Assembly (NCBI GenBank): GCA_964390845.1
Contig: CAYMIL010000002.1
Location: forward strand, 33,885 to 97,884
DNA: 64,000 nt
Reading direction: 5' to 3'
Source of the DNA: an uncultured Candidatus Saccharibacteria bacterium
GTDB taxonomy: Bacteria > Patescibacteriota > Minisyncoccia > Phycocordibacterales > CALRHW01
In this document: positions 7,561 to 53,368 of the stretch, piece after piece
How the letters are laid out: each line of letters starts with the position of its first letter
How positions within the stretch are numbered: position 1 is the first letter of the stretch
The notes under the pieces: model-generated
Told to the model about the DNA's origin: nothing
Seen by the model: the letters and a program-made list of their open reading frames with translations, nothing else
The model's database searches: none
Translations under genes and position numbers: made by a program

Positions 7561-8643
7561 ATGGCTCCACTCAAGCGAAAACCCGAATTTTATCTCGATG
7601 GCGCACACGCATGGGAAGCGATGCTCACTGCGTGCGAACAAGCGCGCCACTCTATCGACCTTGAACAATACATCTTTATGGTCGACACAATCGGTCGCCG
7701 ATTTATTGACGTTCTCATGCGCAAACGTATTGAAGGTGTGCGTGTGCGCATCATATGTGACACCGTTGGGAGCTTCTCATTTTACAACTCAACCGTACCC
7801 GCAATGCTCCGCGACGCGGGCATTGAGATTCGCTTTTTTAATATCGTAAGTCCGTGGCGCATTCGAGATATTTTTTCTTGGTACTTTAGAGATCATCGCA
7901 AAATACTTGTTGTCGACGAAGCGGTTGGTTTTACCGGCGGTGTCGGTATTCATGACGCCATGCGCACATGGCGCGATACGAGCGTGAGAGTGACTGGTCC
8001 GACTGCCCGAGAAATGCAAGATGCATTTGAAGAAATGTGGGATCTTGCCGCAGAAAAAAATATTTTTTCTCGACTGAAAAAATTTAAGCGCTACCACCGC
8101 GGCGAACGTCTCGTAACCAACGCCCCCTACCCGCGCCGCCGTTTTTTGTATCACACATTCATACAAGCGCTTCGCTCCGCAAGGCAATACGCGTTCCTCA
8201 CAACCCCCTACTTTGTTCCCAACCAGCGTTTTGTAAAAGAACTACGCAGAGCTGTCGCACGCGGAGTAGACGTAAAAATTCTTGTTCCAGAAACGTATGA
8301 TGTAATCTTGGTCAACCGCGCATCACACAGCTTTTTTCACGAGATACTTGAAGCTGGCGCTCATATCTACACATATTCCGGCGCATTCCTGCACGCAAAA
8401 ACAGCGGTTATCGACGATACGTGGGCAACGATCGGAAGTTTCAATTTTGACAACCTCAGCTTTACCTACAACCACGAAGCAAACATCGTTTCTATGGATC
8501 AGGCATTTATCAAGCCCCTCAAGAGCCACTTCCTCGCCGATATAGCCCACTCAAAAGAAATCCTCCTTGAAACATGGAAAAAACGTCCTCTCATATGGAA
8601 ATTGCATGAGTTTTTTGTCCTGCCAATACGCAGATTCCTCTAG
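7561..8643 (+). CDS. phospholipase D family protein / cardiolipin synthase-like (two HKD motifs)
   Basis: HRKILVVDEAVGFTGGVGIHD and HAKTAVIDDTWATIGSFNFDNLS HKD motifs; no N-terminal TM helices. Confidence 0.8.
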   Translation: MAPLKRKPEFYLDGAHAWEAMLTACEQARHSIDLEQYIFMVDTIGRRFIDVLMRKRIEGVRVRIICDTVGSFSFYNSTVPAMLRDAGIEIRFFNIVSPWRIRDIFSWYFRDHRKILVVDEAVGFTGGVGIHDAMRTWRDTSVRVTGPTAREMQDAFEEMWDLAAEKNIFSRLKKFKRYHRGERLVTNAPYPRRRFLYHTFIQALRSARQYAFLTTPYFVPNQRFVKELRRAVARGVDVKILVPETYDVILVNRASHSFFHEILEAGAHIYTYSGAFLHAKTAVIDDTWATIGSFNFDNLSFTYNHEANIVSMDQAFIKPLKSHFLADIAHSKEILLETWKKRPLIWKLHEFFVLPIRRFL

Positions 8644-8717
8644 GTGGGGTACCTATTGCCCATTTTTCAAAAGAATGCTATATTTTTGGGACGTTATTAA
8701 GTTATTTCACACACATA

Positions 8718-9227
8718 TTGAGTACGAAGGTTAGAATCAATCATCAGATAAAAGCCCCGCAATTGCGGGTTATAGGCCCTGACGGGGCTAATATTGGGGT
8801 CATTTCCCTCGAGGAAGCCCTCAAACGAGCCACAGAAGCAGAGCTTGACCTGATTGAGATTTCACCCAATGCCGAGCCTCCGGTCGCCAAGATCATGGAT
8901 TATGGCAAGTTTCAATACGACGACAACAAAAAGCAAAAGCTTGCAAAGGCCAAGGCTCACGTAGTCGAAGTAAAGAACATTCAGGTGAAAGTCGGTACTG
9001 GCGACCACGACCTCGCACTTAAGGCAAAAAAAGCATCGGAATGGCTTTCGGAAGGACATCGAGTCAAAATCGACCTCTTCCTCCCGGGACGCTCAAAGTT
9101 CATGGATCTCAATTTCCTCAAAGAGCGCATGGAACGAGTGTTAAAGCTCATCACCGTAGAATACAAAATTGCCGACGCACCAAAGAAGAGCCCGAAGGGC
9201 CTCACCGCGGTCATCGAACGAGTGTAA
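8718..9227 (+). CDS. infC: translation initiation factor IF-3 (non-ATG start, TTG or ATA)
   Basis: KVRINHQIKAPQLRVIGPDGANIGVISLEEAL... IF-3 N and C domains; atypical start as usual for infC. Confidence 0.9.
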   Translation: MSTKVRINHQIKAPQLRVIGPDGANIGVISLEEALKRATEAELDLIEISPNAEPPVAKIMDYGKFQYDDNKKQKLAKAKAHVVEVKNIQVKVGTGDHDLALKAKKASEWLSEGHRVKIDLFLPGRSKFMDLNFLKERMERVLKLITVEYKIADAPKKSPKGLTAVIERV

Positions 9228-9258
9228 AAATAACATCAGGACGGAAATAATTATTCAT

Positions 9259-9444
9259 ATGAAAACGAATAAATCATTTACAAAGCGATTGAAGCTGACT
9301 CGAAACGGCAAGATTATTGCGCGCAAAACTGGTCAGAACCACTTCAACTCAAAAGAAAGCGGACGATCTGGTATTTCAAAAAAGCGTTCTGCTCGGTTCA
9401 CAATGAACAACAAGCTCAAGAGCCGATATCTTGTAAACCAGTAA
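9259..9444 (+). CDS. rpmI: 50S ribosomal protein L35
   Basis: MKTNKSFTKRLKLTRNGKIIARKTGQNHF... basic 62-aa protein between infC and rplT. Confidence 0.8.
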   Translation: MKTNKSFTKRLKLTRNGKIIARKTGQNHFNSKESGRSGISKKRSARFTMNNKLKSRYLVNQ

Positions 9445-9460
9445 TCAGTAATATACGACC

Positions 9461-9805
9461 ATGACACGAGTAAAGAAGGGTGTAAACGCACTCAAAACAC
9501 GAAGAAATGTTCTCAAGCAGGTAAAAGGTTACCGCTTTGGACGAAGCAAAAAGGAGCGCCAGGCATATGAGGCCATCTCACACGCTGGAACATACGCTTT
9601 TGCTCACCGACGAGACAAGAAAAATGATATCCGCCAGCTTTGGGCGGTCCGCATCAACGCGGCGCTTGAGCCACAGGGTCTCTCATATAGCAAAGTAATC
9701 GGCGCCCTCAAAAAGAAAGGTATCGCGCTCGACCGAAAGATTCTTTCGACACTTGCAGACAAGAATCCTGAAACATTCAACCGAATCATTGCACAGATTA
9801 AGTAA
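9461..9805 (+). CDS. rplT: 50S ribosomal protein L20
   Basis: MTRVKKGVNALKTRRNVLKQVKGYRFGRSKK... canonical L20. Confidence 0.95.
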   Translation: MTRVKKGVNALKTRRNVLKQVKGYRFGRSKKERQAYEAISHAGTYAFAHRRDKKNDIRQLWAVRINAALEPQGLSYSKVIGALKKKGIALDRKILSTLADKNPETFNRIIAQIK

Positions 9806-9807
9806 AC

Positions 9808-9837
9808 AAAAACCCCGCACACGCGGGGTTTTTGTTT
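9808..9837. terminator. bidirectional rho-independent terminator (CCCCGC acac GCGGGG flanked by A and T tracts)
   Basis: Serves rplT (+) and the convergent RNase gene (-). Confidence 0.65.
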
Positions 9838-11206
9838 AGCACGGCAACTCGTATACTTTCCCTCGTTCTGGGTACAGGGCGTTGACACCCACGTAATCTC
9901 GTAATCGCTGAACGAGAAACAAACCTGACTTTGGCTCACCCAGAACAACAAACACTTTTTGCACGGTCTCGGCAGTCTGCGCGACAAACTCAACGAGATG
10001 GTCGGAGTCTTTGTGGGCAGAATATCCGGAAATCGTTTCTATGGTCGCGCGCACAGGCACTTTTTCACCATTCAACACCACCTCTTTTGCACCATCCTGC
10101 AACTGTCGCCCCATCGTCCCCAACCCCTGATACCCAATAAGCAACAACGTATTTTTTTCATCAGACAAATACTGCGCCTCATGAAATACTACCCGCCCAC
10201 CGTTGGACATACCTGAGCCCGCGATAATAATTTTTGGGTTTGATGTATGACTAATCGCACGCGAGTCCTCACCTCGGATACTATTTTTAAGTTTCGGAAA
10301 ATTGAAAATATGATCGCCACCCGCAATATCTTTTCGTATCGCCGAGTTGAAATGTTCCTGTGAACTATACTTGTTATATATTTCAGTAATCTTGATAGCT
10401 AAAGGCGAATCAACAAATACAGGGAGTGGCTCAATTACCCCGTCCTCAACCATATTATTTATCTTGTACAAAATAATTTGTGTGCGCTCAAGCGAAAACG
10501 ATGGGATAATGAGCACACCCTTTTTCTCGATAGTGCGCCGTATTGTCTCTTCAAGTTTTTTGTCTGCGACATCCCTGCTTTCGTGGTTACGGTCACCATA
10601 GACGCTATCAACGACCAAATACGTGGCGTCTGTAACTGCTTCTGTATCCTTTAAAAGCGCCGCTGGAGAATTTCCCAAATCACCACAAAAAACGATTTTC
10701 TTTCCCTGATATTCAAACTCAAAAATAGACGAGCCGAGCACGTGCCCCGCATCCTTGAGCGTTACCTTGAAATCGTCTGAAACGCTTGTTGGTGTATGGT
10801 ATGGTATCGTCTTCCACAAAAGAAAAGCATTGTGCACGTCGGCGTCAAAATATAGTGGTGTGACACCCTTTGTTTTTGACTCTATTTCAATGATACGAAC
10901 CGCATCAAGCAACATGAGCTTTGCAATCTCCATTGTTTCCGGCGTTGAATAAATAACGCCCTTAAAACCGTCACGAACAAGTTTTGGGATTCTGCCAATA
11001 TGGTCGATATGCGCATGCGTCACAAACAACATATCGATCGTTGCGGGGTCATAGAGAAATTCTTTTCGATTCTCCCCCTCTGCATATGAACCACCTTGCA
11101 CCAAGCCACAGTCTACGAGAAGCTTCGTCTTGTCGCTCTCCAAGAGAAAATTCGCGCCCGTTACTGTACCAACACCTGTGCAAAATGTAAGTTTAAGCGT
11201 TGCCAT
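9836..11206 (-). CDS. MBL-fold beta-CASP ribonuclease (RNase J / CPSF-like)
   Basis: HAHIDH zinc motif; beta-CASP-like C-terminal half; start set at MATLKL. Confidence 0.6.
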   Translation of the reverse strand: MATLKLTFCTGVGTVTGANFLLESDKTKLLVDCGLVQGGSYAEGENRKEFLYDPATIDMLFVTHAHIDHIGRIPKLVRDGFKGVIYSTPETMEIAKLMLLDAVRIIEIESKTKGVTPLYFDADVHNAFLLWKTIPYHTPTSVSDDFKVTLKDAGHVLGSSIFEFEYQGKKIVFCGDLGNSPAALLKDTEAVTDATYLVVDSVYGDRNHESRDVADKKLEETIRRTIEKKGVLIIPSFSLERTQIILYKINNMVEDGVIEPLPVFVDSPLAIKITEIYNKYSSQEHFNSAIRKDIAGGDHIFNFPKLKNSIRGEDSRAISHTSNPKIIIAGSGMSNGGRVVFHEAQYLSDEKNTLLLIGYQGLGTMGRQLQDGAKEVVLNGEKVPVRATIETISGYSAHKDSDHLVEFVAQTAETVQKVFVVLGEPKSGLFLVQRLRDYVGVNALYPERGKVYELPC

Positions 11207-11606
11207 GATATGGTTTTTTATATCGATATACCGCAACCGCCACAACTACACCGCCAACAACATCCATAATCAAATCAAGGACTGTGTCGGGGACGTAGTT
11301 GGACACAAGAAATGTAATGCCTGTCACATATTCAAAAACTTCCCACAACACACCAACGACAAGCGCCCCCAACACAGACACACTCACCACATATACAATA
11401 TCTGTGCGTGCCGGCATAGAAAAATATCTGGAATAAAAACAAAGCCAGATACATACAAAACCAATCCATGCACCACCGAGAAAATGCATCAAAATATCAA
11501 ACCACGGAAGAGTCCAATACAGATACCAGTCGACAGCAACCACATGCAGAACCGCGATGAGCACAAGAAAGAAAAAACCGAAGATGAAAAGGGGTTTTTG
11601 AAGCAT
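11193..11606 (-). CDS. hypothetical integral membrane protein (4 TM helices)
   Basis: Hydrophobic segments; start chosen at MLQKPLF. Confidence 0.4.
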   Translation of the reverse strand: MLQKPLFIFGFFFLVLIAVLHVVAVDWYLYWTLPWFDILMHFLGGAWIGFVCIWLCFYSRYFSMPARTDIVYVVSVSVLGALVVGVLWEVFEYVTGITFLVSNYVPDTVLDLIMDVVGGVVVAVAVYRYKKPYHGNA

Positions 11607-11898
11607 GGTGTACCGTGTTGGGTATACACCTATTGTACCGTCTTTGTCCCCCAATTAAAACATCCGCTCGCGCGGATGGTTTAATGAGGGTTACTCGAGT
11701 ATATTGCCCTAGTCTTAAACTAGGTGGGTGCTCGCAACAACAATGCCAAAGCATGATGCGATATAAAGCTCCCTGAATATATCTTTAATCTAGATAATAT
11801 CCCAAATAACCCTGCTGTAATTATACGCCCATGCACTGTGGGCACAAATATTTTCTACTATTGCGATACAAAAGAAATTTTGACGCAAGAAATGCAGC

Positions 11899-24620: not shown

Positions 24621-25820
24621 TTAGGCGATGATCTTTGTTACAACACCAGCACCCACTGTCTTTCCACCTTCTCGAATAGCGAAGTTCTGCTTCTCTTCAA
24701 GAGCAACAGGGGCTACGAGCTTTACCTTGAAAGTAACCGTGTCTCCAGGCATAACCATTTCTACACCTTCCTTGAGAGTCACGTCTCCCGTTACGTCTGT
24801 AGTTCGAACGTAGAACTGAGGCTTGTAACCAGAGAAGAATGGAGTGTGTCGGCCACCTTCCTCCTTCTTGAGGATGTATACTTCTGCCTCGAATTCTGTG
24901 TGAGGAGTTACTGATCCTGGCTTTGCAAGAACCTGACCTCGAGAGATGTCTTCTTTCTTAAGACCTCGAACAAGGATACCTGCGTTGTCTCCAGCAAGAC
25001 CTTCCTGAAGAGACTTGTTGAACATTTCGATACCAGTCACGACAGTCTTTGCAGATGCCTTAAGACCGATAACTTCAACTTCTTCACCTACCTTGATGCG
25101 ACCTCGCTCGATTCGGCCTGTTACTACAGTTCCACGACCTTCAATAGAGAAGATGTCTTCAACTGGCATAAGGAATGGCTTGTCGAGTTCACGCTCTGGG
25201 ATTGGAACGTATGTGTCGAGAGCATTAGCAAGCTCAAGAATCTTCTGTGCCCATTCGTCAGAATTATCCTTTGACTCAAGAGCCTTAAGGCCTGAACCTC
25301 GGATTACAGGAGTGTTTGCGCCGTCATAACCGTTCTTTGTGAGAAGCTCTCGAACTTCCTCTTCAACAAGGTCAATAAGCTCCTTATCAGGAACCATGTC
25401 ACACTTGTTAAGGAATACGATAATCTTTGGCACACCGATCTGATGAGCGAGGAGAACGTGCTCACGAGTCTGGGGCATAACACCGTCAGTAGCAGCAACC
25501 ACGATAATAGCGCCGTCCATCTGTGCGGCACCAGTAATCATGTTCTTGATGTAGTCGGCATGACCAGGAGCGTCGATGTGTGCGTAGTGACGAGTTGGAG
25601 TTTCGTACTCGTTGTGAGAAAGGGCAATAGTAATTCCACGTGCCTTTTCTTCAGGCGCCTTATCAATACCGTCGATACCGACGATTTTCGCGCTGTAGCC
25701 ATTACCCTGTCGTCCGAGGACTGAGAGGATAGCCGCTGTAAGCGTAGTCTTTCCGTGGTCAACGTGTCCGATAGTACCGACGTTCACGTGTGGTTTTGAT
25801 CGATCAAAATCTCCTGCCAT
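24621..25820 (-). CDS. tuf: elongation factor Tu
   Basis: [23 protein letters not shown]-motifs. Confidence 0.98.
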
Positions 25821-25922: not shown

Positions 25923-25950
25923 ATATTAGCAAACGGCTCATGTAAGTCAA
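25923..25950 (-). promoter_or_regulatory. candidate sigma70 promoter for tuf (TTGACT-16nt-TAATAT on minus strand)
   Basis: Reverse complement of 25945-25950 = TTGACT, of 25923-25928 = TAATAT; about 95-nt 5' UTR. Confidence 0.45.
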
Positions 25951-25987
25951 GTAAGCTACCCCGAAAGGGTAGTTTCACTCGTTACCA

Positions 25988-26971
25988 CTAGAGAGAATTG
26001 GGTGTCGGGGGACCGAATATTTCAGGTTTATGGTGTATTGGATAGCCTGGAAGGAATGGGAGGAGGGGGTCATCTATAACGATGGGGGTGCATTTCGGAA
26101 TACCATATTCAATGTTTACGCAAAAACACCATGCATTTTTATTATCTGGGCATTTCTTAAACTCATAGTATCCCCAGCCACCAGGCAAATCCTCCCAACA
26201 ATCATCTCCCAGACAAATTAATTTTCTTTTATAGCAAACAAAGTTATATCCCCCATCAGGAGAAAGTGATATATCACATTTTATATGCGGTAAAATCATA
26301 CCGTCGACAATATCAATCGTGCAATTACCAGACTCATCACAGACAATTGTCGCTCTATAGCAGATTTTTATACCCTCAACGAAGAAACACACCTGAAGCT
26401 TATCTTTACCCAATATCTTTACACAAAGAACGTAGCCATTAACGGTAAACTGTTGCTCCCCGGCAGCGCAGGAGGCACCTTCTTGGGGAGCTTCGTTGGC
26501 AGCCAGGTATAATTCTGCTTCAACGGCGGAAAATGTCTGGGATTGAAGGACTTCGAGGGTGTTTGCATCAACGATGCCAGTTTGCGGGAGGTCGTTCTTC
26601 TGCTGAAACTTTTTTACAGCAATCGCAGTAAGCTGACCAAACACATCCGATTCATTACGGGGAGAACCTGTACCAAACTGAGCAATCGGAAAACCTAGAA
26701 TATTCAACGCTTTCTGTATATCCCGCACACCTTCACTCACCACCCCCAGACCAAGGGGTGAAAAAGATTCTGTCTCCTGGGCTTTTTCTGGTTCTTGGAC
26801 CTTCACAGCTGGTGATTTTGTTCTCAACTGAGCGATGTTTTGCACTGAGGCTACCCAAGAAGAGCTTTGGTACTCACCACCCCTTACGTATGAGACAATA
26901 ACAGATAACAGAGCGAGAGCTACCACCGAACACAAAAGACCAACAACGGCCTTGAGGTTTTTGTTTTTCAT
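25988..26971 (-). CDS. secreted/membrane-anchored protein: N-terminal TM, PG_binding_1-like domain, C-terminal Cys-rich (about 20 Cys) domain
   Basis: MKNKNLKAVVGLLCSVVALALL TM segment; VRDIQKALNILGF...FGQLTAIAVKKFQQKNDLPQTGIVDANT matches the peptidoglycan-binding domain consensus; dense Cys in last about 170 aa. Confidence 0.6.
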   Translation of the reverse strand: MKNKNLKAVVGLLCSVVALALLSVIVSYVRGGEYQSSSWVASVQNIAQLRTKSPAVKVQEPEKAQETESFSPLGLGVVSEGVRDIQKALNILGFPIAQFGTGSPRNESDVFGQLTAIAVKKFQQKNDLPQTGIVDANTLEVLQSQTFSAVEAELYLAANEAPQEGASCAAGEQQFTVNGYVLCVKILGKDKLQVCFFVEGIKICYRATIVCDESGNCTIDIVDGMILPHIKCDISLSPDGGYNFVCYKRKLICLGDDCWEDLPGGWGYYEFKKCPDNKNAWCFCVNIEYGIPKCTPIVIDDPLLPFLPGYPIHHKPEIFGPPTPNSL

Positions 26972-26989
26972 ACACACAGTATACCACGC

Positions 26990-27024
26990 AAAAACCCCCA
27001 GATTTTTCAATCTGGGGGTTTTTG
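26990..27024. terminator. rho-independent terminator after fusA (CCCCCAGA-loop-TCTGGGGG + T5), bidirectional
   Basis: Seen directly; lies only about 18 nt upstream of the start of the Cys-rich gene. Confidence 0.65.
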
Positions 27025-27032
27025 CTGTTTTG

Positions 27033-29177
27033 CTATTTTCGACTCTCGACGATCGTCTTCTCGACGTTCGGAGGAACGATCTCGTAGTGATCAAATTCCA
27101 TACCGGCATTACCACGACCCTCTGTCATAGAGCGGAGCTGTGTGGTATACCCGAACATTTCAGACAATGGAACCATCGCGCGGATAACCTTCACACCACC
27201 TGGTCGGTCCTCAAATCCTTCAATCTGAGCACGCTTTGAAGAGAGGCTTCCTGTCACATCACCAAAGAATTTTTCAGGAGCTGTCACCTCGACTTTCATA
27301 ATAGGCTCGAGAATCACAGGACGTGCACGCTTAGCGGCCTCTTGGAATGCCTGAGAACCCGCAATCTTGTAGGCAATTTCAGATGAGTCCACGTCGTGGT
27401 ACGAACCGAATGTGAGTTCGCAGGATACGTTTACCATCTTGAAGCCAGCAACGATACCGCGATCCATTGCCTCCTTTACACCCTTTTCTACCGCAGGGAT
27501 AAATTCCTGAGGAATAACACCTCCCTTGATAGAATCAATAAACTCGAAGTCGTCGTATCGCTTAACGTTCTTAGGTACTTTTTCACCCTCCTCAAGCTTC
27601 TCCATAGGCTTAAGGGTGATTTTAACGTGACCGTACTGACCCTTACCTCCAGACTGCTTGATGTACTTGTGTTCTGCTTCAGCTTCGCCAGTGATAGTTT
27701 CCTTGTATGACACCTGAGGCTTTCCAACGTTTGCCTCAACACCGAACTCTCGCTTCATTCGATCAACCATGATTTCAAGATGAAGCTCTCCCATGCCTGA
27801 GATGATAGTCTCGCCTGTTTCAGCGTTTGAACCAATTTTAAATGTAGGGTCTTCGTCTGAGAGTTTCTTGAGAGCGATACCCATTTTTTCCTGATCTGCC
27901 TTTGTTTTCGGTTCGATTCGGAGGGATACCACTGGCTCAACGAACTTAATCGGGTCGAGAATGATTGGGTTGTTTTCGTCGCAGAATGTATGCGATGTCT
28001 TTGCGCTCTTGATACCCACAGCGGCAGCAATTTCACCTGCAAACACCTTCTTTACCTCTTCTCGCTTATCTGCCTGAAGGCGGACAATACGGCCAAGGCG
28101 CTCTTTCTCACCAGTCGTTGAGTTGTATAAATAGCTTCCCGCTTCAACTGTTCCAGAATACACACGGAAGAATGTGAGCTGTCCGACGAATGGGTCGTTT
28201 TGGAGCTTGAAGGCAAGCGCCGCAAACGGCTCGCTGTCTGAAGGACCACGCTCGATTTCATTGCCTGTCTTAGGGTCAATTCCCTTTACTGGAGGCATGT
28301 CTAGAGGAGATGGGAGGTATCGAACAACAGCATCGAGCACAAGCTGAACACCTTTGTTTTTGAGCGCAGAACCTGCGTACACAGGAATGAGCTTAACTGC
28401 GAGTGTCGCTTTTCGAAGTGCCGCATGAAGCGCATCCATTTCAGGCTCTTTGCCCTCAAGATACATGCTCATAAGCGCATCGTCTGTCTCGACAATTCTC
28501 TCGATGAGTTCTGCTCGATACTTCTTTGCTTCCTCTACATACTCTGCAGGAACTTCATCTTCACGAATAGTGTTACCCATTGTTCCCTCAAAGTAGAATG
28601 CCTTCATCTTGAGAAGGTCGATAACACCGAGGAAGTTTTCCTCAAGACCAATAGGAATCTGCATACGAACTGCATTTTTGTTGAGGCGGTCAAGAATAGA
28701 TTTGTATGATCGCTCAAAACTTGCGCCCATTCGGTCGAGCTTGTTGATAAAACAGATTCGAGGCACTTTTCCGTCGTCAGCATAGCGCCAGTTTGTTTCA
28801 GACTGAGGCTCCACACCCGCCACACCGTCGAAAACTACCACCGCACCGTCGAGCACTCGAAGGGAGCGCTTCACTTCAGCGGTAAAGTCGATGTGTCCAG
28901 GAGTATCGATAATATTAAAACGATGCTTGAAAGAGGTGTCCGCACCCATGAATGTCGGATTCCAGAAACATGTAATCGCCGCGGCAGTAATGGTAATGCC
29001 ACGCTCTCGTTCCTGCTCCATCCAGTCGGTCGTCGTATTACCCTCGTGCACCTCGCCGATCTTATGACTCTCGCCGGTGTAGTAGAGCACGCGCTCAGAC
29101 GTAGTCGTCTTTCCGGCGTCGATGTGCGCAATAATTCCAAAATTTCTAACTTTTTCTAGAGGGTAATCTCGGTTCAT
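27033..29177 (-). CDS. fusA: elongation factor G
   Basis: [18 protein letters not shown]-motifs; 714 aa. Confidence 0.98.
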
Positions 29178-29292: not shown

Positions 29293-29763
29293 CTACCACG
29301 CAAAATGCGCGAATGCTTTGTTTGCCTCGGCCATCTTGTGGGTATTTTCCCGCTTTTTGACGGCCTCACCTTCGTTTTTGCTTGCAGCGATAATCTCGTC
29401 TGAAAGGCGGTTTGCCATAGGAGAGCCCTTCTTTGAGCGAGCCGCCTCAATAATCCACTTCATAGAAAGCGCGAGTCGGCGCTCTGGGCGAACTTCTCGA
29501 GGAATCTGGTAGTTTGCACCACCGACACGTCGAGAACGAACCTCCATAAGAGGGCCTGTGTTTTTCAGCGCCGCATCGAGAACTTCGAGAGGATCGGTTG
29601 TCTTTGCCTTATCTTTGAGTTGCTCAAGGGCATCGTAGACTACCGTACGAGCAGTCTGCTTCTTTCCATCAAGCATTACGTAGTTGATAAGCTTTCCAAC
29701 CTTCTCTGATTCGTAGACAAAGTCTGGACCAACAATATTTCGATTCTTAACTTTTCGTCGCAT
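29293..29763 (-). CDS. rpsG: 30S ribosomal protein S7
   Basis: Sequence and synteny. Confidence 0.95.
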   Translation of the reverse strand: MRRKVKNRNIVGPDFVYESEKVGKLINYVMLDGKKQTARTVVYDALEQLKDKAKTTDPLEVLDAALKNTGPLMEVRSRRVGGANYQIPREVRPERRLALSMKWIIEAARSKKGSPMANRLSDEIIAASKNEGEAVKKRENTHKMAEANKAFAHFAW

Positions 29764-29780: not shown

Positions 29781-30191
29781 TTATTTCTTAGGTTTTTTAG
29801 CACCGTAGACAGAACGGCTCGTGTTTCGGTTCTCTACACCAGTAGCATCGAGTACGCCTCGAACAATAGTGTATCGAAGACCAACGTCCTTTACACGACC
29901 ACCTCGAATCATTACCACGGAGTGCTCTTGGAGGTTGTGGCCAATACCTGGGATGTATGCGGTGACTTCCATGCCGTTTGTAAGGCGAACTCGGGCGATT
30001 TTTCGGATAGCTGAGTTAGGCTTTTTTGGAGTCTTTGTTGTTACCTTTGTACATACACCTCGCTTAAATGGAGCGGCGTAGTATACGGGTCGGTTTTTAA
30101 TCACATTGAAACCACGAGAAAGAGCGACAGCCTTAGACTTTCGCTTAATTTTGCTTCGGTTTCGTTTTACGAGCTGATTTATTGTTGACAT
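29781..30191 (-). CDS. rpsL: 30S ribosomal protein S12
   Basis: [12 protein letters not shown]..., conserved PNSA region. Confidence 0.97.
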
Positions 30192-34706: not shown

Positions 34707-35189
34707 ATGAACGCACGCAAAGGTATGGTTCTTGCAGAAGCACTTGTTGGCGCATCCGTGCTGATTGTGTTTATCTCCGCACTCGTGCTTGCGCAACGCA
34801 TCTTTATCGCGCAGTCATCGATGTCTATCGACAAAACACAGTCTGCACTCCTTGCAGAAGAAGGTATCGAGGTTGCAAAGTTTTTGCGTGATGAAAACTG
34901 GGCAAATATCGCCTGCGCAAGCACAACCTGTGGTCCCTACGGCCTCCAGTGGGATACGACGTGGTCAACAACCACATCCGCCGAAATTATCGACGAAAAA
35001 TTTTATCGCACCCTCACTATCGACCGCGTCTGTCGTAACAACAGCACATTTGCCATAGCATCATCATGTTCTGGTGCTGTTACCAACGATCCAAACACCA
35101 AAAAGGTAACCATTTCCGTATCGTGGTCGCGCAACAACGCGACAACAACAAAAACGATGGCGACATATCTCACCAACTTCCATGAATAA
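34707..35189 (+). CDS. type IV pilin-like / pseudopilin (G|MVLAE)
   Basis: MNARKG-MVLAEALVGASVLIV; start trimmed from longer ORF. Confidence 0.7.
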   Translation: MNARKGMVLAEALVGASVLIVFISALVLAQRIFIAQSSMSIDKTQSALLAEEGIEVAKFLRDENWANIACASTTCGPYGLQWDTTWSTTTSAEIIDEKFYRTLTIDRVCRNNSTFAIASSCSGAVTNDPNTKKVTISVSWSRNNATTTKTMATYLTNFHE

Positions 35190-35694
35190 GCACAGAGGAT
35201 TTAGCTTGGCAGAAATGATTGTGTACGTCGCGCTCGTAGCGATGCTCCTCTTTATCGTTATCAACATTCTCATTGTGGGGCTCAACATGTATCGACGCTT
35301 TGATGCGGCGCGCAATGTGCAGGATGCGGCAATTGCTGTAATCGAGCGGGTCGTATCCGAATCTCGCAACGCATCAATGATCAGTGTCGAGGCATCTGGC
35401 GTCGACAGCAGTGGCCAAAACGCTCTCGTTATGTACAACGAAAACGATGCTCGGTTGGCACAATTCACCATTGGCACCGATGGTATCATTCGGCTCTACA
35501 ACAGTAGCGGAAACCTCGTTGGCCCCCTTACTCCAAAGGATGTAACCGCTGCGGGGTCGTATTTCCTCATTGCATCAAGCACTTCTGGTACGCCACTGGC
35601 GCGCGTGATCCTCATTCTTCGTTCAGGCGAAGGAGAGACAGAGCGCACAGAAAATTTTTACACATCTGTCGTGCCTCGCGGTTCATATAAATAA
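35182..35694 (+). CDS. type IV pilin-like / pseudopilin (G|FSLAE)
   Basis: MNKHRG-FSLAEMIVYVALV; 8-nt overlap with upstream pilin (translational coupling). Confidence 0.75.
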   Translation: MNKHRGFSLAEMIVYVALVAMLLFIVINILIVGLNMYRRFDAARNVQDAAIAVIERVVSESRNASMISVEASGVDSSGQNALVMYNENDARLAQFTIGTDGIIRLYNSSGNLVGPLTPKDVTAAGSYFLIASSTSGTPLARVILILRSGEGETERTENFYTSVVPRGSYK

Positions 35695-42567: not shown

Positions 42568-43788
42568 CTAGATAGCGTCAACAAGAGAATACATCGGTCC
42601 AAGCATAGAGATTGCAAAGAATCCGACCGCGATACCAATAAACACCATAAGAAACGGCTCAATGATTGTCGACATATCTTTTGTCTTTTGGTCGACCTCA
42701 TCCTCGTAAAACTGAGCAACGTTTGTAAACATTTCAGACAATTTTCCAGTTTCTTCGCCAATACTCGTCATTTCACCCACAAACACGGGGTACAGTTTCT
42801 CGTGCGCAAGGAAGATGCCCGACATCGGCTCTCCTTTCTCGACACTACTTTCTGCCTCTGCAAGCACTGTTTTGTAATAAGAGTTTTGAATCACATCTTT
42901 TGTAATACGAATGGCTACCAGCACATCAACACCTGAGGACAGGAGGGAGGAGAGGGTGCGCGCTGTTCGAGCGGCGTTTACGTTTTTTACAATTGGTGAA
43001 ACAAGTGGAATATGAAGGACGATTGTATCAAGTGTGCGCTTACCTGAAGCAGTACGCGCAAAGAGATATACACCACACGCAAGCGCAATGAGCGAGCCGA
43101 GGGAAATTAAAATATTGTTTTTCAAAAAATCAGAGAGGAAGATTACGATGCGCGTCGACAGCGGAAGTGTAAGCTTAAGCTCGCGAAACGTTGCGGTGAG
43201 TGTCGGCACAAGATACACAAGCATAAGAACACCGATAACAAGCATAATGGAAAGTACGATACCAGGATAAATGAGCGCGCCGCGCACCTTTTTCGTCAGC
43301 AAATATGCCTTCTCAAGCTGGTCAGCAACTGTTTTAAGGGCGATAGTAAGCGTACCACTCTGCTCTCCAGACTTTACCATCGAGACGAAAAGTGTCGAAA
43401 ATGCCGACGGATGCTTTACCATTGCCTCACTAAGCTCACTTCCCTTGCTAATATCTGCCGAGAGGTTTGCGATGACACTCTTAAGTTTCTTATTCTTTGC
43501 TTGACGTTCCATCACAGAAAGAGCACGAGCCATCGGCAAACCCGCGGTAATCATCGTGCCAAGATTGCGCGCAAACAAAATACGGTCAATTGTTTTGACA
43601 CTTCCACCCTGAAGGCTCGCGAAAGCACTCGCAAGAAACCCTGAACGCTGTTTTTTTTCTTCTGCAAAGGTAACCGTTCCACCCTCCCCCTTTATCTGAC
43701 TATACAGCGCAGATTTATTTGCGGCCTCTTGCTCACCTTCATATCGCTCACCCGACGCATTAATAGCTTTAAATGTAAAAATTGGCAT
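42568..43788 (-). CDS. pilC: type IV pilus assembly platform protein PilC / GspF family
   Basis: Two GspF repeats, three TM helices; directly downstream of pilB. Confidence 0.85.
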   Translation of the reverse strand: MPIFTFKAINASGERYEGEQEAANKSALYSQIKGEGGTVTFAEEKKQRSGFLASAFASLQGGSVKTIDRILFARNLGTMITAGLPMARALSVMERQAKNKKLKSVIANLSADISKGSELSEAMVKHPSAFSTLFVSMVKSGEQSGTLTIALKTVADQLEKAYLLTKKVRGALIYPGIVLSIMLVIGVLMLVYLVPTLTATFRELKLTLPLSTRIVIFLSDFLKNNILISLGSLIALACGVYLFARTASGKRTLDTIVLHIPLVSPIVKNVNAARTARTLSSLLSSGVDVLVAIRITKDVIQNSYYKTVLAEAESSVEKGEPMSGIFLAHEKLYPVFVGEMTSIGEETGKLSEMFTNVAQFYEDEVDQKTKDMSTIIEPFLMVFIGIAVGFFAISMLGPMYSLVDAI

Positions 43789-43791
43789 AGA

Positions 43792-45576
43792 TTATTCTGA
43801 AATTACACGGAGAATTTCTTCGATTGTTGTGTGGCCTTGTACCGCCTTAAAGATGCCATCTTCAATCATTGTGAGCATTCCTTCTGTTTTTGCCTGCTTC
43901 TCAATGTCTTTATCTGTTTTCCCCTGCATCACAAGCTCTTTAATAGCAGGAGAAATTTTTAATATTTCATAAATGCCGACGCGACCACTAAACGCTTCTT
44001 CCTCAGAAGCACCCGCCTTTGGCCGATAAAACGGCACTTTGTCCCATGACACCTTACCCTCAACCACCTGCTCTTCTTTGAGGAACTTGAGTACACGATC
44101 GAGATCGACCGTTTTTTTGAGAGTTTCAATTTCAGCATCTGATAAAAAGTATTTTTCTTTTTTATCTGTGAGCTTTCGAACAAGACGTTGGGCAATGACG
44201 ATGTTGACTGTCGACACAATAAGAAACGGCTCAACCTTCATGTCGATAAGACGTGGGATAGCGCCCGCAGCGGAGTTGGTGTGCAATGTGGAAAGCACGA
44301 GGTGGCCCGTGAGCGACGCGTTGATCGCAAGCGACGCTGTTTCACCGTCTCGAATTTCTCCCACCATAATAATATCCGGATCCTGACGCACCAAGGTGCG
44401 CAACCCCGCAGAAAACGTGAGGCCAATTTCTGGCTTCACCTGTGTTTGGTTAATCCGATTCATCTGATACTCTACAGGATCTTCGATAGTGGAAATATTT
44501 ACATCCGGCGTGTTGAGAATATCGAGCAAGGTGTAGAGGGTTGTTGTTTTTCCAGAACCAGTCGGACCAGTGGTGAGAATCATACCCGTCGTGAGTTTCA
44601 TTGTGTGGTGAATACGCTCAAGCGCTTCTCCATGGAAGCCAAGCGCTTCCAGCGTAAAGCCTGAGGCTGTCTCACGCAACAAACGCATCACTGTCTTCTC
44701 TCCGTAATAGACAGGGAGTGTCGACACACGAAATGACACCTTTTCATTGTTAACCTCAATTTTGAAACGACCATCTTGAGGAAGGCGCTTCTCATCAAGC
44801 TTCAAATTTGCGAGCACTTTAATACGTGCCGTGATACTCGGCGCAATATTTCTCGGCAATGTCATCGCGTCGTGAAGTAGGCCGTCGATTCGGTAACGGA
44901 CAATCACCTGCTGTTCAAGTGGTTCAATATGAATATCGGAAGCATTTTGCAAAATAGCATGCTTGAGCAGTGTGTCGACAATACGCACAACAGGCACGTC
45001 CTCTGCGAGTTTCTTGAGGTCACTTTCAGACACATCCTCTCCCCCCTCATGTTCTTCTACTGTCTTGAGTGAGACCGCATCTTTTTGAATCAAATCGCCA
45101 AATTCTGCCTTGAGACTTTTCTGATACTGCAACAACGCCCCCTTCATCGACTCATTATCTGTAAGGCGGGGCAAAATTTTCAAACCTACTTTCTTTTTTA
45201 CGAAATCAATCGCCGTAAGATCGGCAATATCGAGCATCGCCACCTCAAGCGCGCCAGCAATTTTTTTAAAGGCAACAATGTTGTGGTTGCGAGCAATCGG
45301 CTCTGGCACAAGCGAGAGTACTTCAAAGTCGAGCTTCTGCCCTTTCAAGTCGACAAACGGTATGCCGAGCACGTGCGCGTGAATCCGGCGCAAATCGTCC
45401 TCACTAATCTTTCCTCGACTCACGAGAATTTCTCCAACGCTTACGTCGGTTGCCTTCGATTCTTTTTCTGCATCAGCAAAATCGGCTTTTGAGACAAGGC
45501 CTGCGTCAAGAATAAAATCCTTAAATTGTTTTTCTTCAACGTGCATCTGAACGTAGTGTTGACTTAAGTATAACAA
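43792..45576 (-). CDS. pilB: type IV pilus assembly ATPase PilB / GspE (with N-terminal GSPII_E_N domains)
   Basis: Walker A GPTGSGKTTT, Asp box, Walker B, His box; ORF starts TTG at 45576, an ATG (MHVEEK) lies at 45546. Confidence 0.9.
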   Translation of the reverse strand: MLYLSQHYVQMHVEEKQFKDFILDAGLVSKADFADAEKESKATDVSVGEILVSRGKISEDDLRRIHAHVLGIPFVDLKGQKLDFEVLSLVPEPIARNHNIVAFKKIAGALEVAMLDIADLTAIDFVKKKVGLKILPRLTDNESMKGALLQYQKSLKAEFGDLIQKDAVSLKTVEEHEGGEDVSESDLKKLAEDVPVVRIVDTLLKHAILQNASDIHIEPLEQQVIVRYRIDGLLHDAMTLPRNIAPSITARIKVLANLKLDEKRLPQDGRFKIEVNNEKVSFRVSTLPVYYGEKTVMRLLRETASGFTLEALGFHGEALERIHHTMKLTTGMILTTGPTGSGKTTTLYTLLDILNTPDVNISTIEDPVEYQMNRINQTQVKPEIGLTFSAGLRTLVRQDPDIIMVGEIRDGETASLAINASLTGHLVLSTLHTNSAAGAIPRLIDMKVEPFLIVSTVNIVIAQRLVRKLTDKKEKYFLSDAEIETLKKTVDLDRVLKFLKEEQVVEGKVSWDKVPFYRPKAGASEEEAFSGRVGIYEILKISPAIKELVMQGKTDKDIEKQAKTEGMLTMIEDGIFKAVQGHTTIEEILRVISE

Positions 45577-45630: not shown

Positions 45631-46635
45631 TTACTCGATTCGAAGCGCCCAACCAAATCGTGTCTCTCCACAATCATAGTCATTACCAGAGCTCAAACAA
45701 CTTGTTGGTGGCACACCTCCGATACTACCGATTGTTGTGCCGCCAGCGTACACGCCCATGTATACATATGGAGTAGCTGTATACATTTCACGGTCTGCTG
45801 TACTGTCTCCTATCTGATCCATTCGTGTAAGGTTCACAAGCCACTTTGCGCTTGCGCCGCCAGGGAGCGTTGGGCCAGCACCGCTGTTGAGCACATCACC
45901 TGCCCATGATGTAGACCATTTTGATCCATCCACACCGATATTATGTCCCGGCTCGTTTCCATACGCCTCCAAGTATCCGAAGGCAAAAGAGATTGTAGCC
46001 CCAACGCCCGTTGTTTGGTTGGTGCCCGTTCCATATGGAAGCATGACTGATCTCCAATCACCCTGACCGCCCGTACCTGTTGCAGTAAAGACCTTTCCGT
46101 TTGAAGGCGTGCCACCTGTTACCTGAAGTGTTCCCGCAACTTTCACGTTGGTTGAAGACTGGGACATGATGGAGTTTGAAAGTGTCGTGCCGTTTGGAGA
46201 AAAGAACGGAATGTAGTTTGTTGTACCAGAGCCACCAATACCACCTGTACCCCCACCTGATGGCCATGTGTCTTTACATACTCCTCGAATACACAATCCT
46301 CCAGCAGTTGCAGAACCTCCGTTGATGTATCCTTCAGTATTAATTTTATAGTTTGGATCATGTGCTACAGTTCCCGCGATAATTGAGCCTGCGGATGCGC
46401 GAAGCGCAACTTCAGGAGCACCTGTACCTATCACGAGTCCACCAATTTTTGTCTGAGAAGCACTGCTCACATTAATCGGCGCATCACATCCGGGGCTACC
46501 TGATGTACATGCCGGTGGCAATGATGACGGCGCAGACCAGTCTGCGCGAAGTGCGCCGATGCCAACGGTGAGCATAAGCGCGAGTACAATCACTTTCACG
46601 CTCTGCAGAATTTCTTGTTTATTTATGATTTTCAT
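45631..46635 (-). CDS. secreted Gly/Thr-rich protein (334 aa), signal peptide
   Basis: N-terminal hydrophobic signal; low-complexity GGTGG tracts; upstream of pilB on same strand. Confidence 0.45.
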   Translation of the reverse strand: MKIINKQEILQSVKVIVLALMLTVGIGALRADWSAPSSLPPACTSGSPGCDAPINVSSASQTKIGGLVIGTGAPEVALRASAGSIIAGTVAHDPNYKINTEGYINGGSATAGGLCIRGVCKDTWPSGGGTGGIGGSGTTNYIPFFSPNGTTLSNSIMSQSSTNVKVAGTLQVTGGTPSNGKVFTATGTGGQGDWRSVMLPYGTGTNQTTGVGATISFAFGYLEAYGNEPGHNIGVDGSKWSTSWAGDVLNSGAGPTLPGGASAKWLVNLTRMDQIGDSTADREMYTATPYVYMGVYAGGTTIGSIGGVPPTSCLSSGNDYDCGETRFGWALRIE

Positions 46636-49269: not shown

Positions 49270-49462
49270 GACAAAAATGGTTAAGTACTCGTTTGAAATT
49301 ATATCACACGACACCTGCTCAGAAGCGCGCTATGCACAGTTTTTGACAGATAAGCCCGACTTGACTTTTCTCTTTCAATTTACTATTATATGTGCATTGA
49401 AGTTCGCCCCCGGCGAGCTCATTTTTTTAGATAACGCCGGTTTCCCGGCAACATACACACAT

Positions 49463-52213: not shown

Positions 52214-53368
52214 ATGATTACCCCGAAGAGATCTTTGCGGACCGTTGGCCTCATCGTACTGGTTGCCGTAGTGTCCTTTGCGCACGTTCCAACGGCACTT
52301 GCGAAGGCGGCATCGACAGAAACAACGAGTGTCCAAACAAACACATCAAACTCCTCAGTCAACACATCGGCAACACAAGCGGTCAGCACAACAAACTCTG
52401 CACCAAGTGCGACACCACAGAAATCAAGTGATCTCAATCACGATGGGTACGTCACAAATGCAGACGTAAATCTCGTACTCAGCAGTTTTGGTACATGCCA
52501 ACTAAGCGCGTCATGCCCGGCAGACATCAACAATGATGGTTCTGTAAACAATGCAGATCTCTCTATTGTTGTAAAAAACGCAAACTCTTCGACTGCGGGT
52601 GGCAATGGTGCACTCACTGGCGGCGGAATCAACAACACCTCAAACACTTCTGTCAGCACGACAGACGGCTCAACAAACTCTTCATCAAACGGCACAACAC
52701 ACACAACATCAAACTCAACAACGAACACCAATACAAACACATCCGGAAACACTTCACCCGTTTCATCAACACAACGCACTGGCGGTTCAACAGGAATAAA
52801 CCCGAACGCGTTTCTTGGAAACCAATCTCAGGTTCCTGCGGTAACACGCCAACTCATTGAGTTTGTCCTCCCTATCCCAAACTACATGCAAAATCCGAGC
52901 ACGCCACGTGTTGTAAATGAGGAAGAAGAGATGAAAGCACGAAGTGCGCGCTCAAGCACTGCTCAACAAAATTTCCAGACGATTCAAGACCGGCTTGAAG
53001 CAGGAACACAGCGTATCGACACACTCATTACACGCATCGAATCTCGCATGGAGAAAATGCGATCGGATGGTATCAGTATTGCCGCGGCTGAAGTGTTTGT
53101 GGAACGAGCAAAAACAAGCGCTGGTGTGGCGCGAGCAAATACCGCAGGACTTGAAGAAGCATTCAACAATGCCCTTGCACAAACAACAGACAACGATGCA
53201 CGCATCGCATTTGAAAGCGTGCGCGCACTCATCGCAAGCGCAAAATCTCAGCTTGAAGGAGCTCGACGAAATCTTCTTGAAGCAGTTCGCATCATGAAAG
53301 CGGCGCAAGAACGTTTTCAACCACAAGTATCGGCTGAGGACAGCGCACTCGAGAGTGAGTTAAACTAA
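52214..53368 (+). CDS. secreted dockerin-domain protein with S/T/N-rich linker and C-terminal alpha-helical domain
   Basis: Signal peptide; duplicated Ca-binding loops DLNHDGYVTNAD and DINNDGSVNNAD spaced 19 aa apart (type I dockerin pattern DxNxDGxVNxxD). Confidence 0.6.
   Translation: MITPKRSLRTVGLIVLVAVVSFAHVPTALAKAASTETTSVQTNTSNSSVNTSATQAVSTTNSAPSATPQKSSDLNHDGYVTNADVNLVLSSFGTCQLSASCPADINNDGSVNNADLSIVVKNANSSTAGGNGALTGGGINNTSNTSVSTTDGSTNSSSNGTTHTTSNSTTNTNTNTSGNTSPVSSTQRTGGSTGINPNAFLGNQSQVPAVTRQLIEFVLPIPNYMQNPSTPRVVNEEEEMKARSARSSTAQQNFQTIQDRLEAGTQRIDTLITRIESRMEKMRSDGISIAAAEVFVERAKTSAGVARANTAGLEEAFNNALAQTTDNDARIAFESVRALIASAKSQLEGARRNLLEAVRIMKAAQERFQPQVSAEDSALESELN

Follow-up and report, generated by a model that had tools for sequence, protein, structure and literature searches.

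A cysteine-rich, putatively wall-tethered protein encoded in a variable slot between fusA and tuf of an uncultured Paceibacteria bacterium

We lean towards reading protein X, which is encoded between fusA and tuf, as a surface or binding protein that is tethered to the wall and expressed from a leaderless transcription unit of its own in a variable fusA-tuf slot. The source organism is an uncultured Paceibacteria (Patescibacteria/CPR) bacterium known as a MAG, and the analysis covered a stretch of 64,000 nucleotides of its DNA (the window). Taken alone, gene X would add one more to the uncharacterised surface proteins of CPR. Of greater value are three by-products, namely the variable slot, the leaderless signal and the Cys-rich C-terminal domain of X (the head); none of them overturns current views. 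The gene and its neighbours are as follows.

25988..26971 (-): gene X, ATG at 26971, 327 aa plus stop codon, from the ORF list and the sequence
27033..29177 (-): fusA (EF-G), 714 aa, upstream neighbour, from the ORF list and from EF-G domains (Pfam) of the identical contig
24621..25820 (-): tuf (EF-Tu), 399 aa, with rpsJ and the S10 operon behind it

Gene X lies 61 nt after fusA on the same strand, and tuf and the S10 operon come next. This confirms the 327-aa same-strand gene that the earlier note had placed in the fusA-tuf interval, with the CDS at 25988-26971 (-); of the range 25988-27032 given there, the remainder up to 27032 is the fusA-X spacer. Protein X occurs in identical form on seven public-assembly contigs. 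A word-indexed search of the full-length protein against 5.8 billion proteins returned the self-match alone, and tblastn with X against 80 related-species loci gave zero matches. A 120-aa antisense ORF of locus L037 came up as a possible head homologue (phmmer E=3e-4 in a tiny database) and was judged spurious. The literature on fusA/tuf insertions in Parcubacteria and on Cys-rich PG-binding proteins in CPR yielded nothing relevant.

In E. coli and most bacteria, fusA and tufA of the classical str operon (rpsL-rpsG-fusA-tufA) are adjacent and co-transcribed. The classical order rpsL, rpsG, fusA ... tuf, rpsJ is kept here on a single strand, but three things come between fusA and tuf, namely a predicted terminator, an additional gene that has a putative -10 element, and a candidate tuf promoter; such a split is the rule in relatives. 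The EF-G proteins of Paceibacteria MAGs are 62-84% identical to this fusA product. Among the 42 relatives with tuf found downstream, the fusA-tuf gap is shorter than 200 nt in only four; measured gaps range from 114 to 4574 nt (median ~960 nt), and in the clade they extend to >5 kb, with differing cargo. An additional 20 relatives have no tuf match, by the scoring used, within at least 4.5 kb of fusA. The interruption, which had been called unusual, is so in comparison with bacteria at large but not inside the clade. The fusA-tuf junction in this clade is a variable cargo slot and its interruption is normal: a junction that is usually invariant is open in over 90% of the examined species in this Paceibacteria branch.

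Among the 150 cargo ORFs of the relatives, no Pfam family is as frequent as PG_binding_1. Seven cargo proteins in six relatives combine a signal peptide, PG_binding_1 and a variable head, and none of these carries the Cys-rich head of X. Examples, by locus and position, are listed here.

L081, 7329-9908: signal peptide-PG_binding_1 cargo protein
L022, 3572-5650: signal peptide-PG_binding_1 cargo protein
L031, 9396-11660: signal peptide-PG_binding_1 cargo protein
L019, 7751-10234 and 10383-11735: signal peptide-PG_binding_1 cargo proteins
L035, 5333-7027: signal peptide-PG_binding_1 cargo protein

At L081 and L022, the PG_binding_1 protein is the sole gene between fusA and tuf. Like X, these proteins are encoded after fusA on the same strand and have an exchangeable C-terminus. 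Their N-terminal layout is that of X, with PG_binding_1 always right behind the signal peptide and starting at about residues 67-113. Conversely, they are larger (450-859 aa vs 327 aa), show zero similarity to X outside PF01471, and bear heads of TIG, PKD with DUF4214, cupredoxin or 4-Cys repeats, never the domain of X. A coiled-coil stretch precedes the binding domain in several of the inspected proteins. Gene X would be one occupant of a slot that often holds proteins built from a signal peptide, PG_binding_1 and an exchangeable head. With its variable, often secreted cargo, the slot makes a practical marker for surface proteins that are specific to a strain. A further-reaching proposal is that the Paceibacteria fusA-tuf junction is a dedicated diversification slot, in which a constant signal peptide/PG_binding_1 stalk receives swappable heads for host recognition or attachment, and that the head of X is a new fold moved horizontally between a CPR and a non-CPR bacterium, possibly its host; we regard this as a long shot. 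The ORFs downstream of fusA in relatives also include two of the IS200 transposase type and two of the HepT/nucleotidyltransferase toxin-antitoxin type. Long EF-G matches at several loci (L017, L021, L037, L040 and others) had raised inteins as a cause, and were traced to the scan running into the adjacent tuf GTPase domain.

The architecture of X comprises four parts, which are listed from the N-terminus.

26885..26971 (-): residues 1-29, N-terminus rich in Lys, then a hydrophobic segment of 22 residues; putative signal anchor, cleavage uncertain, no lipobox
26546..26734 (-): residues 80-142, PG_binding_1 (PF01471), Pfam HMM E=3e-15
26090..26470 (-): residues 168-294, Cys-rich all-beta domain (predicted), 14 Cys, no described family
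25991..26089 (-): residues 295-327, Pro-rich tail with the motif D-P...LP[FL][LI]PGY

The N-terminus reads MKNKNLK followed by 22 hydrophobic residues, as seen by eye in the sequence, and this is the single TM-like segment in X. Single-sequence AF2 models residues 4-35 as a helix; block-mean pLDDT is 72-87 across residues 1-30. The segment looks like an uncleaved signal anchor, which would hold X in the membrane or export it. The PF01471 domain that the earlier note had proposed to search for was detected at residues 80-142 with 56.6 bits (cut-off 23), covering positions 3-57 of the 57-position profile. No other protein in the 64-kb window has PF01471. Single-sequence AF2 gives helices at 80-91, 108-125 and 136-143 in this region, at pLDDT of only 30-40; the full-length model (pLDDT 46) was too poor for use. 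An anchor is predicted upstream of the domain, in keeping with the extracytoplasmic location that marks PG_binding_1 proteins, and the module would tether X to peptidoglycan.

Behind this module, the C-terminus consists of a Cys-rich part of ~130 aa and a Pro-rich tail of ~33 aa. The outline of anchor, PF01471 and Cys-rich C-terminus drawn in the earlier note therefore stands, except that the Cys count is 14 (residues 168-294) plus one in the anchor and not ~20. When 1.84 billion cluster representatives were searched exhaustively with the head by HMMER, a single true match emerged, P0002; P0003, from the same search, is a spurious repeat protein. A profile search with the head family added only P0004, and the head profile matched nothing among viral contigs and JGI metagenome contigs. 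Head identity between X and P0002/P0004 is 34-37%, and 12 Cys are invariant across the alignment of the three sequences. The two homologues compared with each other give a dN/dS of ~0.38, which shows, at the level of sequence comparison, that the head family is under purifying selection. The tail motif is common to X, P0002 and P0004, and aligns with the C-termini of the latter two; in the AF2 models, the tail of X is of low confidence or disordered.

P0002/P0005 (263 aa) and P0004 (259 aa), the only detectable head homologues, are metagenomic proteins that are likewise predicted to be exported. Unlike X, they lack PG_binding_1; in its place, a cleavable-looking signal peptide is followed by ~75 aa of unrelated N-terminal sequence. 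The extra Cys pair of X, C253/C258, is absent from them too. P0002 is encoded on ERZ28593291 scaffold_223 (82.8 kb). The gene content of their contigs (PutA, acetyl-CoA carboxylase, a hybrid histidine kinase and T2SS-K are encoded there) is non-CPR, and the homologues sit away from fusA and tuf. Judged by sequence, X, P0002/P0005 and P0004 would form an undescribed family of exported proteins with 12 conserved Cys, a beta-rich domain of ~130 aa and an LP[FL][LI]PGY tail. Three members are known among ~1.8 billion protein clusters, and the fold searches gave no match.

The AF2 model of the head, which was built from the three-sequence alignment (pLDDT 72.4, pTM 0.62), is an all-beta meander of 10 strands. 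Foldseek with this model against PDB and BFVD returned nothing at E≤1e-3, and the best match among PDB sequences was an activin-receptor ectodomain that is not significant (E=0.098). A 'porin-like' fold match was rejected, the protein being read as a soluble disulfide-rich ectodomain. All six exported single-anchor Cys-containing proteins in the window have an even number of Cys (14, 4, 6, 6, 26 and 2). An even Cys count is reportedly a signature of disulfide-forming organisms, and the counts in the window suggest extracytoplasmic disulfide formation in this CPR bacterium. The head is probably stapled by seven disulfides. X would display this all-beta head of ~130 aa, with the Pro-rich tail behind it, at the cell surface, where its most likely role would be that of a non-enzymatic binding or adhesion module.

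That gene X is nonfunctional, a chance ORF or the decayed remnant of a larger PG_binding_1 protein, is hardly credible. It has no orthologues in relatives and is shorter than their 450-859-aa PG_binding_1 cargo. Both of its ends are nevertheless intact, with the anchor present and a tail motif that aligns to the C-termini of P0002/P0004, and the significant Pfam match, the conservation of the 12 Cys in the homologue alignment and the dN/dS of a family under purifying selection effectively refute this reading. The earlier note had named the absence of PF01471 together with that of the ORF from close relatives as speaking against its proposal; the domain was detected, and the ORF is missing from 80 of 80 related species genomes. 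Gene X is confirmed as a real gene on sequence grounds because it has a significant Pfam domain and 12 Cys invariant with two head homologues, whose dN/dS is ~0.38.

PG_binding_1 is classically fused to wall-acting enzymes such as amidases, peptidases and SleB-type hydrolases, and CPR bacteria are generally regarded as episymbionts, a way of life in which cell walls have to be breached or remodelled. Both points would suit a cell-wall-acting enzyme or lytic effector with a catalytic Cys-rich head aimed at its own or a host's peptidoglycan. The NCBIfam and PHROG matches of X are indeed to SleB and endolysins, but they are confined to residues 63-175, the PG_binding_1 stretch with its immediate flanks, and none falls in the head from residue 180 on. 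E260, D261 and D212 are invariant among the three family members and are indistinguishable from catalytic residues because only three sequences exist. The head matches no known hydrolase fold or family, and no catalytic family was found for it in Pfam, NCBIfam, PHROGs, PADLOC or PDB sequences. Moreover, both head homologues lack a wall-targeting domain, and the same N-terminal module bears non-enzymatic heads (TIG, PKD, cupredoxin) in relatives. We consider an enzymatic X unlikely. X shares with SleB, phage endolysins and the Zn D-Ala-D-Ala carboxypeptidase an extracytoplasmic PG_binding_1 module joined to a second domain. In contrast to SleB/endolysin-type proteins, the module of X lies N-terminal to the head, directly behind the membrane anchor, and its partner is a Cys-rich beta domain in which no known hydrolase, peptidase or transpeptidase domain is recognised. 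In terms of the wall-hydrolase groups considered (SleB, endolysins, amidases, M15 peptidases and YkuD), no recognisable catalytic domain stands beside PG_binding_1 in X.

As to its origin, X or its head could have been gained recently by horizontal transfer or domain swap in a slot prone to recombination, as strain-specific cargo with little conserved role. X is missing from all 80 species-level relatives, its only head homologues sit on contigs with gene content unlike CPR, and the head-coding part has a GC content of 42.0%, compared with 46.8% for the N-terminal part and a gene mean of 47.5 ± 2.1%. The two IS200-type transposase and two HepT/nucleotidyltransferase ORFs downstream of fusA in relatives point the same way. 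On the other hand, the low GC is explicable by an abundance of the amino acids Cys, Ile, Lys, Asn and Tyr, and any transfer would be old because head identity to the homologues is only 34-37%. Because EF-G identity reaches only 84% even in the closest relative, the lack of X in other genomes is a poor guide to its time of arrival. The locus itself is devoid of mobility features: no integrase, transposase or recombinase lies between fusA and tuf, no flanking repeats occur around gene X beyond chance 10-18-mers, and no tRNA is found within 30 kb (Rfam detects only four tRNAs, far from the locus). Recent acquisition is possible but doubtful.

Four elements in the flanks of gene X bear on its expression.

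26988..27025 (-): candidate intrinsic terminator downstream of fusA, a hairpin with a perfect stem of 17 bp and a 4-nt loop
26978..26986 (-): extended -10-like element TGGTATACT, 6 nt before the ATG; candidate leaderless promoter, read from sequence
25956..25972 (-): weak hairpin CUACCC-UUUC-GGGGUAG, 16 nt past the X stop codon, poor U-tract
25923..25950 (-): tuf promoter-like site TTGACT-N16-TAATAT, TG before the -10, 9/12 consensus matches

The hairpin after fusA begins 7 nt past the stop codon of fusA, and its end is 16 nt short of the ATG of X. Its arms of 17 nt each (26988-27004 and 27009-27025) pair perfectly around a G+C core, with the A-tract and the U-tract as part of the stem, and its folding energy is -33.3 kcal/mol (z=-6.5 vs shuffles). 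In the following spacer, TATACT (26978-26983) is preceded by TGG, which makes it an extended -10, and is separated from the ATG by six nucleotides. No good -35 lies upstream; a TTGAAA is found 21 nt away. The promoter of tuf that the earlier note had reported, TTGACT-N16-TAATAT, is present at 25950-25923 as a consensus match only, since the promoter scan found as many such sites as in shuffled sequence, and implies a leader of ~95 nt. Termination after gene X is uncertain: the region around the second hairpin does not fold significantly (z=-1.5), and gene X and tuf may share some transcripts because this hairpin is weak. With promoter, terminator and leaderless start read from their consensus, the fusA transcript would stop at the strong terminator, RNA polymerase would start from TGGTATACT at the A of the ATG to give a leaderless gene X mRNA, and tuf would be driven separately by its own promoter. 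The layout of fusA, gene X and tuf is that of three putative separate units, and gene X seems to be transcribed as a unit by itself.

The opposite possibility is that gene X is a str operon member, reached by read-through from fusA and expressed at very high, growth-rate-coupled levels. Its strand and its position 61 nt after fusA, with tuf and the S10 operon behind, fit this, and to our knowledge intrinsic terminators are never fully efficient; the weakness of the hairpin after X would also let X transcripts reach tuf. Contiguity is however broken by the perfect 17-bp, G+C-cored terminator-like hairpin with its U-tract, which on a read-through RNA would also hinder 30S binding, as it would lie 16 nt before the ATG. 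Gene X has its own extended -10 at leaderless distance, and tuf its own candidate promoter. Nor is presence conserved: with 0 of 80 related loci matching X and slot content varying freely among genomes, X does not resemble a stoichiometric operon member. We judge operon membership quite unlikely. The very high, growth-coupled expression that the earlier note had suggested finds no support because a terminator follows fusA and X and tuf have their own -10 and promoter, respectively.

A separate leaderless unit for gene X is in accordance with signals elsewhere in the window. The arrangement TGnTAnnnT-N5-8-ATG occurs at 21 sites, 9 of which are at annotated gene starts, gene X included, compared with ~0.6 expected, an enrichment of about 16-fold. 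The suggestion that the mRNA may be leaderless has gained support because this extended -10/ATG arrangement is so strongly enriched at gene starts. The missing Shine-Dalgarno, which had been held to be notable, is uninformative: an SD core precedes just 2 of 59 window genes, compared with 3.6 expected by chance, and a leaderless gene X mRNA would be in keeping with a genome without Shine-Dalgarno usage. Such a genome, with a clear leaderless/extended -10 signal, bears on gene calling and on translation start in CPR. Leaderless genes of Actinobacteria and Deinococcus reportedly have a -10 box ~7 nt upstream of the start codon. Gene X likewise combines a -10 5-8 nt upstream of its start codon with the absence of an SD; 6 nt separate its hexamer from the ATG, and the arrangement recurs at many gene starts of the genome. 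Unlike in those genes, the hexamer here is nearly always preceded by TGn, and no -35 is evident. In 9 of 46 relatives, the same TGnTAnnnT-N5-8-ATG arrangement was observed at in-frame start codons that coincide with, or are close to, the beginning of the first cargo gene.

Gene X, a 327-aa ORF, lies between fusA and tuf. The genes rpsL, rpsG, fusA, X and tuf and the rpsJ/S10 operon are all encoded on the minus strand, in that order:

29781-30191, minus strand: rpsL
29293-29763, minus strand: rpsG
27033-29177, minus strand: fusA
26988-27025, minus strand: hairpin with a perfect 17-bp stem and a 4-nt loop, 7 nt after the fusA stop codon
25988-26971, minus strand: X, with its ATG at 26971
24621-25820, minus strand: tuf, followed by rpsJ and the S10 operon

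By its sequence, X is a real gene, predicted to encode a membrane-anchored, peptidoglycan-tethered surface protein. From the ATG at 26971, the N-terminus reads MKNKNLK followed by 22 hydrophobic residues, a textbook-like anchor. A 375-aa version from a GTG at 27115 is not credible; it runs into the 3´ end of fusA. An HMM search located PG_binding_1 (PF01471) at residues 80-142 (E=3e-15; 56.6 bits against a Pfam cut-off of 23). The NCBIfam (SleB) and PHROG (endolysin) matches are confined to residues 63-175, which comprise PG_binding_1 and its immediate flanks, and neither reaches the rest of the Cys-rich C-terminal head. Residues 168-294 hold 14 cysteines, one more is located in the anchor, and a 33-residue Pro-rich tail follows the Cys-rich part. 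The earlier note's observation of a same-strand gene between fusA and tuf, encoding a transmembrane segment and a PG_binding_1-like domain, is therefore confirmed with small corrections; its count of about 20 C-terminal cysteines was too high.

A protein identical to X was found on metagenomic contigs of 212-302 kb. EF-G shares 62-84% identity with the EF-G of MAGs labelled Zambryskibacteria, Nomurabacteria, Kaiserbacteria, Paceibacterota and Minisyncoccia, which places the organism in the class Paceibacteria of the Patescibacteria (CPR). The closest species-level relative has 84% EF-G identity, with none above. The interval from the fusA end to the tuf start was examined in 80 related loci. 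Downstream tuf was found in 42 of them, with a gap of 114-4574 nt (median ~960 nt), and only 4 of these 42 gaps are shorter than 200 nt. Twenty further loci extend at least 4.5 kb beyond fusA with no tuf match under the scoring used; two of these, L041 and L069, carry an EF-Tu-domain ORF and then rpsJ, which suggests a tuf gene about 3.4 and 1.6 kb downstream, respectively. These counts make an interrupted fusA-tuf junction the rule in this clade. A gene at this position, previously regarded as an oddity, is ordinary within the clade. X itself has zero tblastn matches in the 80 loci. What the position of X reflects is a slot of variable content shared across the clade, rather than X belonging to the str operon.

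The content of this slot varies between genomes of the Paceibacteria relatives. The 150 ORFs of at least 100 aa downstream of fusA comprise 101 Pfam families, including pyrimidine-biosynthesis genes, PNPase and DnaG (housekeeping genes, in some genomes), two IS200 transposase ORFs and two HepT/nucleotidyltransferase (HepT/MNT) toxin-antitoxin-type ORFs. Across the related loci L003-L082, the slot is hypervariable, with gaps from 114 nt to more than 5 kb, and large secreted proteins of up to ~1200 aa are encoded 3´ of fusA. The commonest single family is PG_binding_1, with seven proteins in six relatives (L081, L022, L031, two in L019, L035, and a weak match in L012); in two of them, L081 and L022, such a protein is the sole gene from fusA to tuf. 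The domain starts at about residues 67-113, right behind the signal peptide, and is followed by heads that differ by protein (TIG, PKD with DUF4214, cupredoxin, PKD, and 4-Cys repeats). X belongs to the same modular class but is short, and its head is present in none of these proteins, which makes it a variant not described before among PG_binding_1 proteins. The 4-Cys units (CP..x..P..C.G.L....D.NGCQTGWQC) recur in two neighbouring L019 proteins (7751-10234 and 10383-11735) and form a Cys-rich module distinct from that of X. An enzymatic role is the less likely reading of X. Because the same stalk in relatives bears non-enzymatic heads and X carries no catalytic signature, X most likely serves to display a binding module.

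Among 5.8 billion proteins searched by word index, X alone was recovered. An exhaustive HMMER search of 1.84 billion cluster representatives with residues 160-327 identified one true relative, the metagenomic protein P0002 (E=6e-5, 39% identity over 120 residues); the second match was a spurious repeat protein. A profile search added a second homologue, P0004. P0002 (the same protein as P0005) has a true size of 263 aa and a signal peptide that looks cleavable. In contrast to X, P0002 and P0004 are without PG_binding_1, and their N-terminal region is unrelated. Their contigs encode PutA, acetyl-CoA carboxylase, a hybrid histidine kinase and T2SS-K, a gene content that is not CPR-like. The three heads share 12 invariant cysteines, with an extra pair (C253 and C258) in X, and the tail motif D-P...LP[FL][LI]PGY. 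A dN/dS of ~0.38 between P0002 and P0004 indicates purifying selection on the family. AlphaFold2, run with the 3-sequence alignment, predicts an all-beta meander of ten strands (pLDDT 72.4, pTM 0.62). Foldseek with this model gave no match at E≤1e-3 in PDB or BFVD, and the head had no match in viral contigs, JGI contigs, PDB sequences or PADLOC. All six Cys-containing exported single-anchor proteins in the window (at 25988, 34560, 35700, 45631, 47005 and 52214) have an even number of cysteines after the anchor (14, 4, 6, 6, 26 and 2), which suggests that the organism forms extracytoplasmic disulfide bonds; the fit points to seven disulfides in X. As modelled, the head represents a tiny, undescribed, disulfide-rich beta-domain family.

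The head-coding part of X has a GC content of 42.0%, compared with 46.8% for the N-terminal part and 47.5 ± 2.1% for window genes. The difference hints weakly that the module is foreign or was swapped in; low GC can also be a consequence of amino-acid composition. The X locus showed neither flanking direct repeats nor recombinase genes or tRNAs. The P0002 gene is located at contig ends in two assemblies (L083 1-1900 and L084 1-1900). These contigs are identical for ~1460 nt and diverge inside a ~90-nt repeated element (…TTTTACTCTAATTTTACTAAAGAGACACTAGCTTATTGTTTGTCGCGC…) preceded by a 25-nt direct repeat, GTATCGGGGTTACTTTTCCAGTCAA; both are probably intergenic repeats at which assemblies break off.

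A second Cys-rich exported protein (47005-49314, minus strand; 769 aa, 26 cysteines beyond the anchor) shows no sequence kinship with the X head. Its weak C-terminal PKD_4 match is slightly under the Pfam cut-off (26.2 versus 27 bits). Its neighbourhood includes 45631-46635 and two large, possibly pilus-related ORFs at 42568-45576 (all minus strand). About 10 kb away, 35182-35694 (plus strand) encodes a pseudopilin that has an N_methyl motif. An exported 384-aa protein (52214-53368, plus strand) has a Dockerin_1 match (E=1.8e-6), a domain unusual for a CPR genome.

The hairpin between fusA and X folds at -33.3 kcal/mol (z=-6.5 versus shuffles), and its A-tract and U-tract belong to the stem. 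A putative extended -10 element, TGGTATACT, begins 2 nt after the hairpin and is separated by 6 nt from the X ATG. The missing Shine-Dalgarno (SD) sequence, formerly taken as a pointer to a leaderless mRNA, carries no weight because only 2 of 59 window genes have an SD core (GGAG/GAGG/AGGA at -20 to -5; 3.6 expected from shuffles); judged from these 59 curated starts, SD sequences are not used by this genome. The motif TGnTAnnnT-N5-8-ATG has 21 occurrences when the two strands of the window are counted together, nine of them at annotated starts, against ~0.6 expected with gene starts making up 59 of 2164 ATG triplets. These starts are 1749(+), 6624(-), 13965(-), 15277(-), 26971(-, X), 32112(+), 40185(-), 40233(+) and 42517(-), including a divergent pair (40185/40233) with starts 47 nt apart and the motif at each. 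In 9 of 46 relatives, the same arrangement stands ahead of an in-frame start codon that coincides with, or lies close to, the start of the first gene in the slot. The enrichment suggests that leaderless transcripts are widespread and, together with the recurrence in relatives, makes the proposed leaderless X mRNA, started from an extended -10 promoter, a reasonable inference; X is probably transcribed on its own in this form. The hairpin downstream of X is weak. The near-consensus TTGACT-N16-TAATAT reported ahead of tuf was seen ~95 nt before the gene, with an upstream TG. This layout of a terminator-like hairpin, a putative promoter of X, X, and a putative tuf promoter lends no support to the very high, growth-coupled expression once proposed for X through the str operon. 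Beyond X itself, three side findings are of modest interest: the variable slot, the signal for leaderless transcripts and the orphan domain.

A(A/C)ACGACC recurs directly ahead of the ATG of several ribosomal-protein genes, on the minus strand at 24598 (rpsJ), 22489 (rplB), 20140 (rplP), 15715 and 19241. CGACC precedes 5 of 59 starts in the window and ACC 9 of 59, and the longer motif may be a non-SD initiation context.
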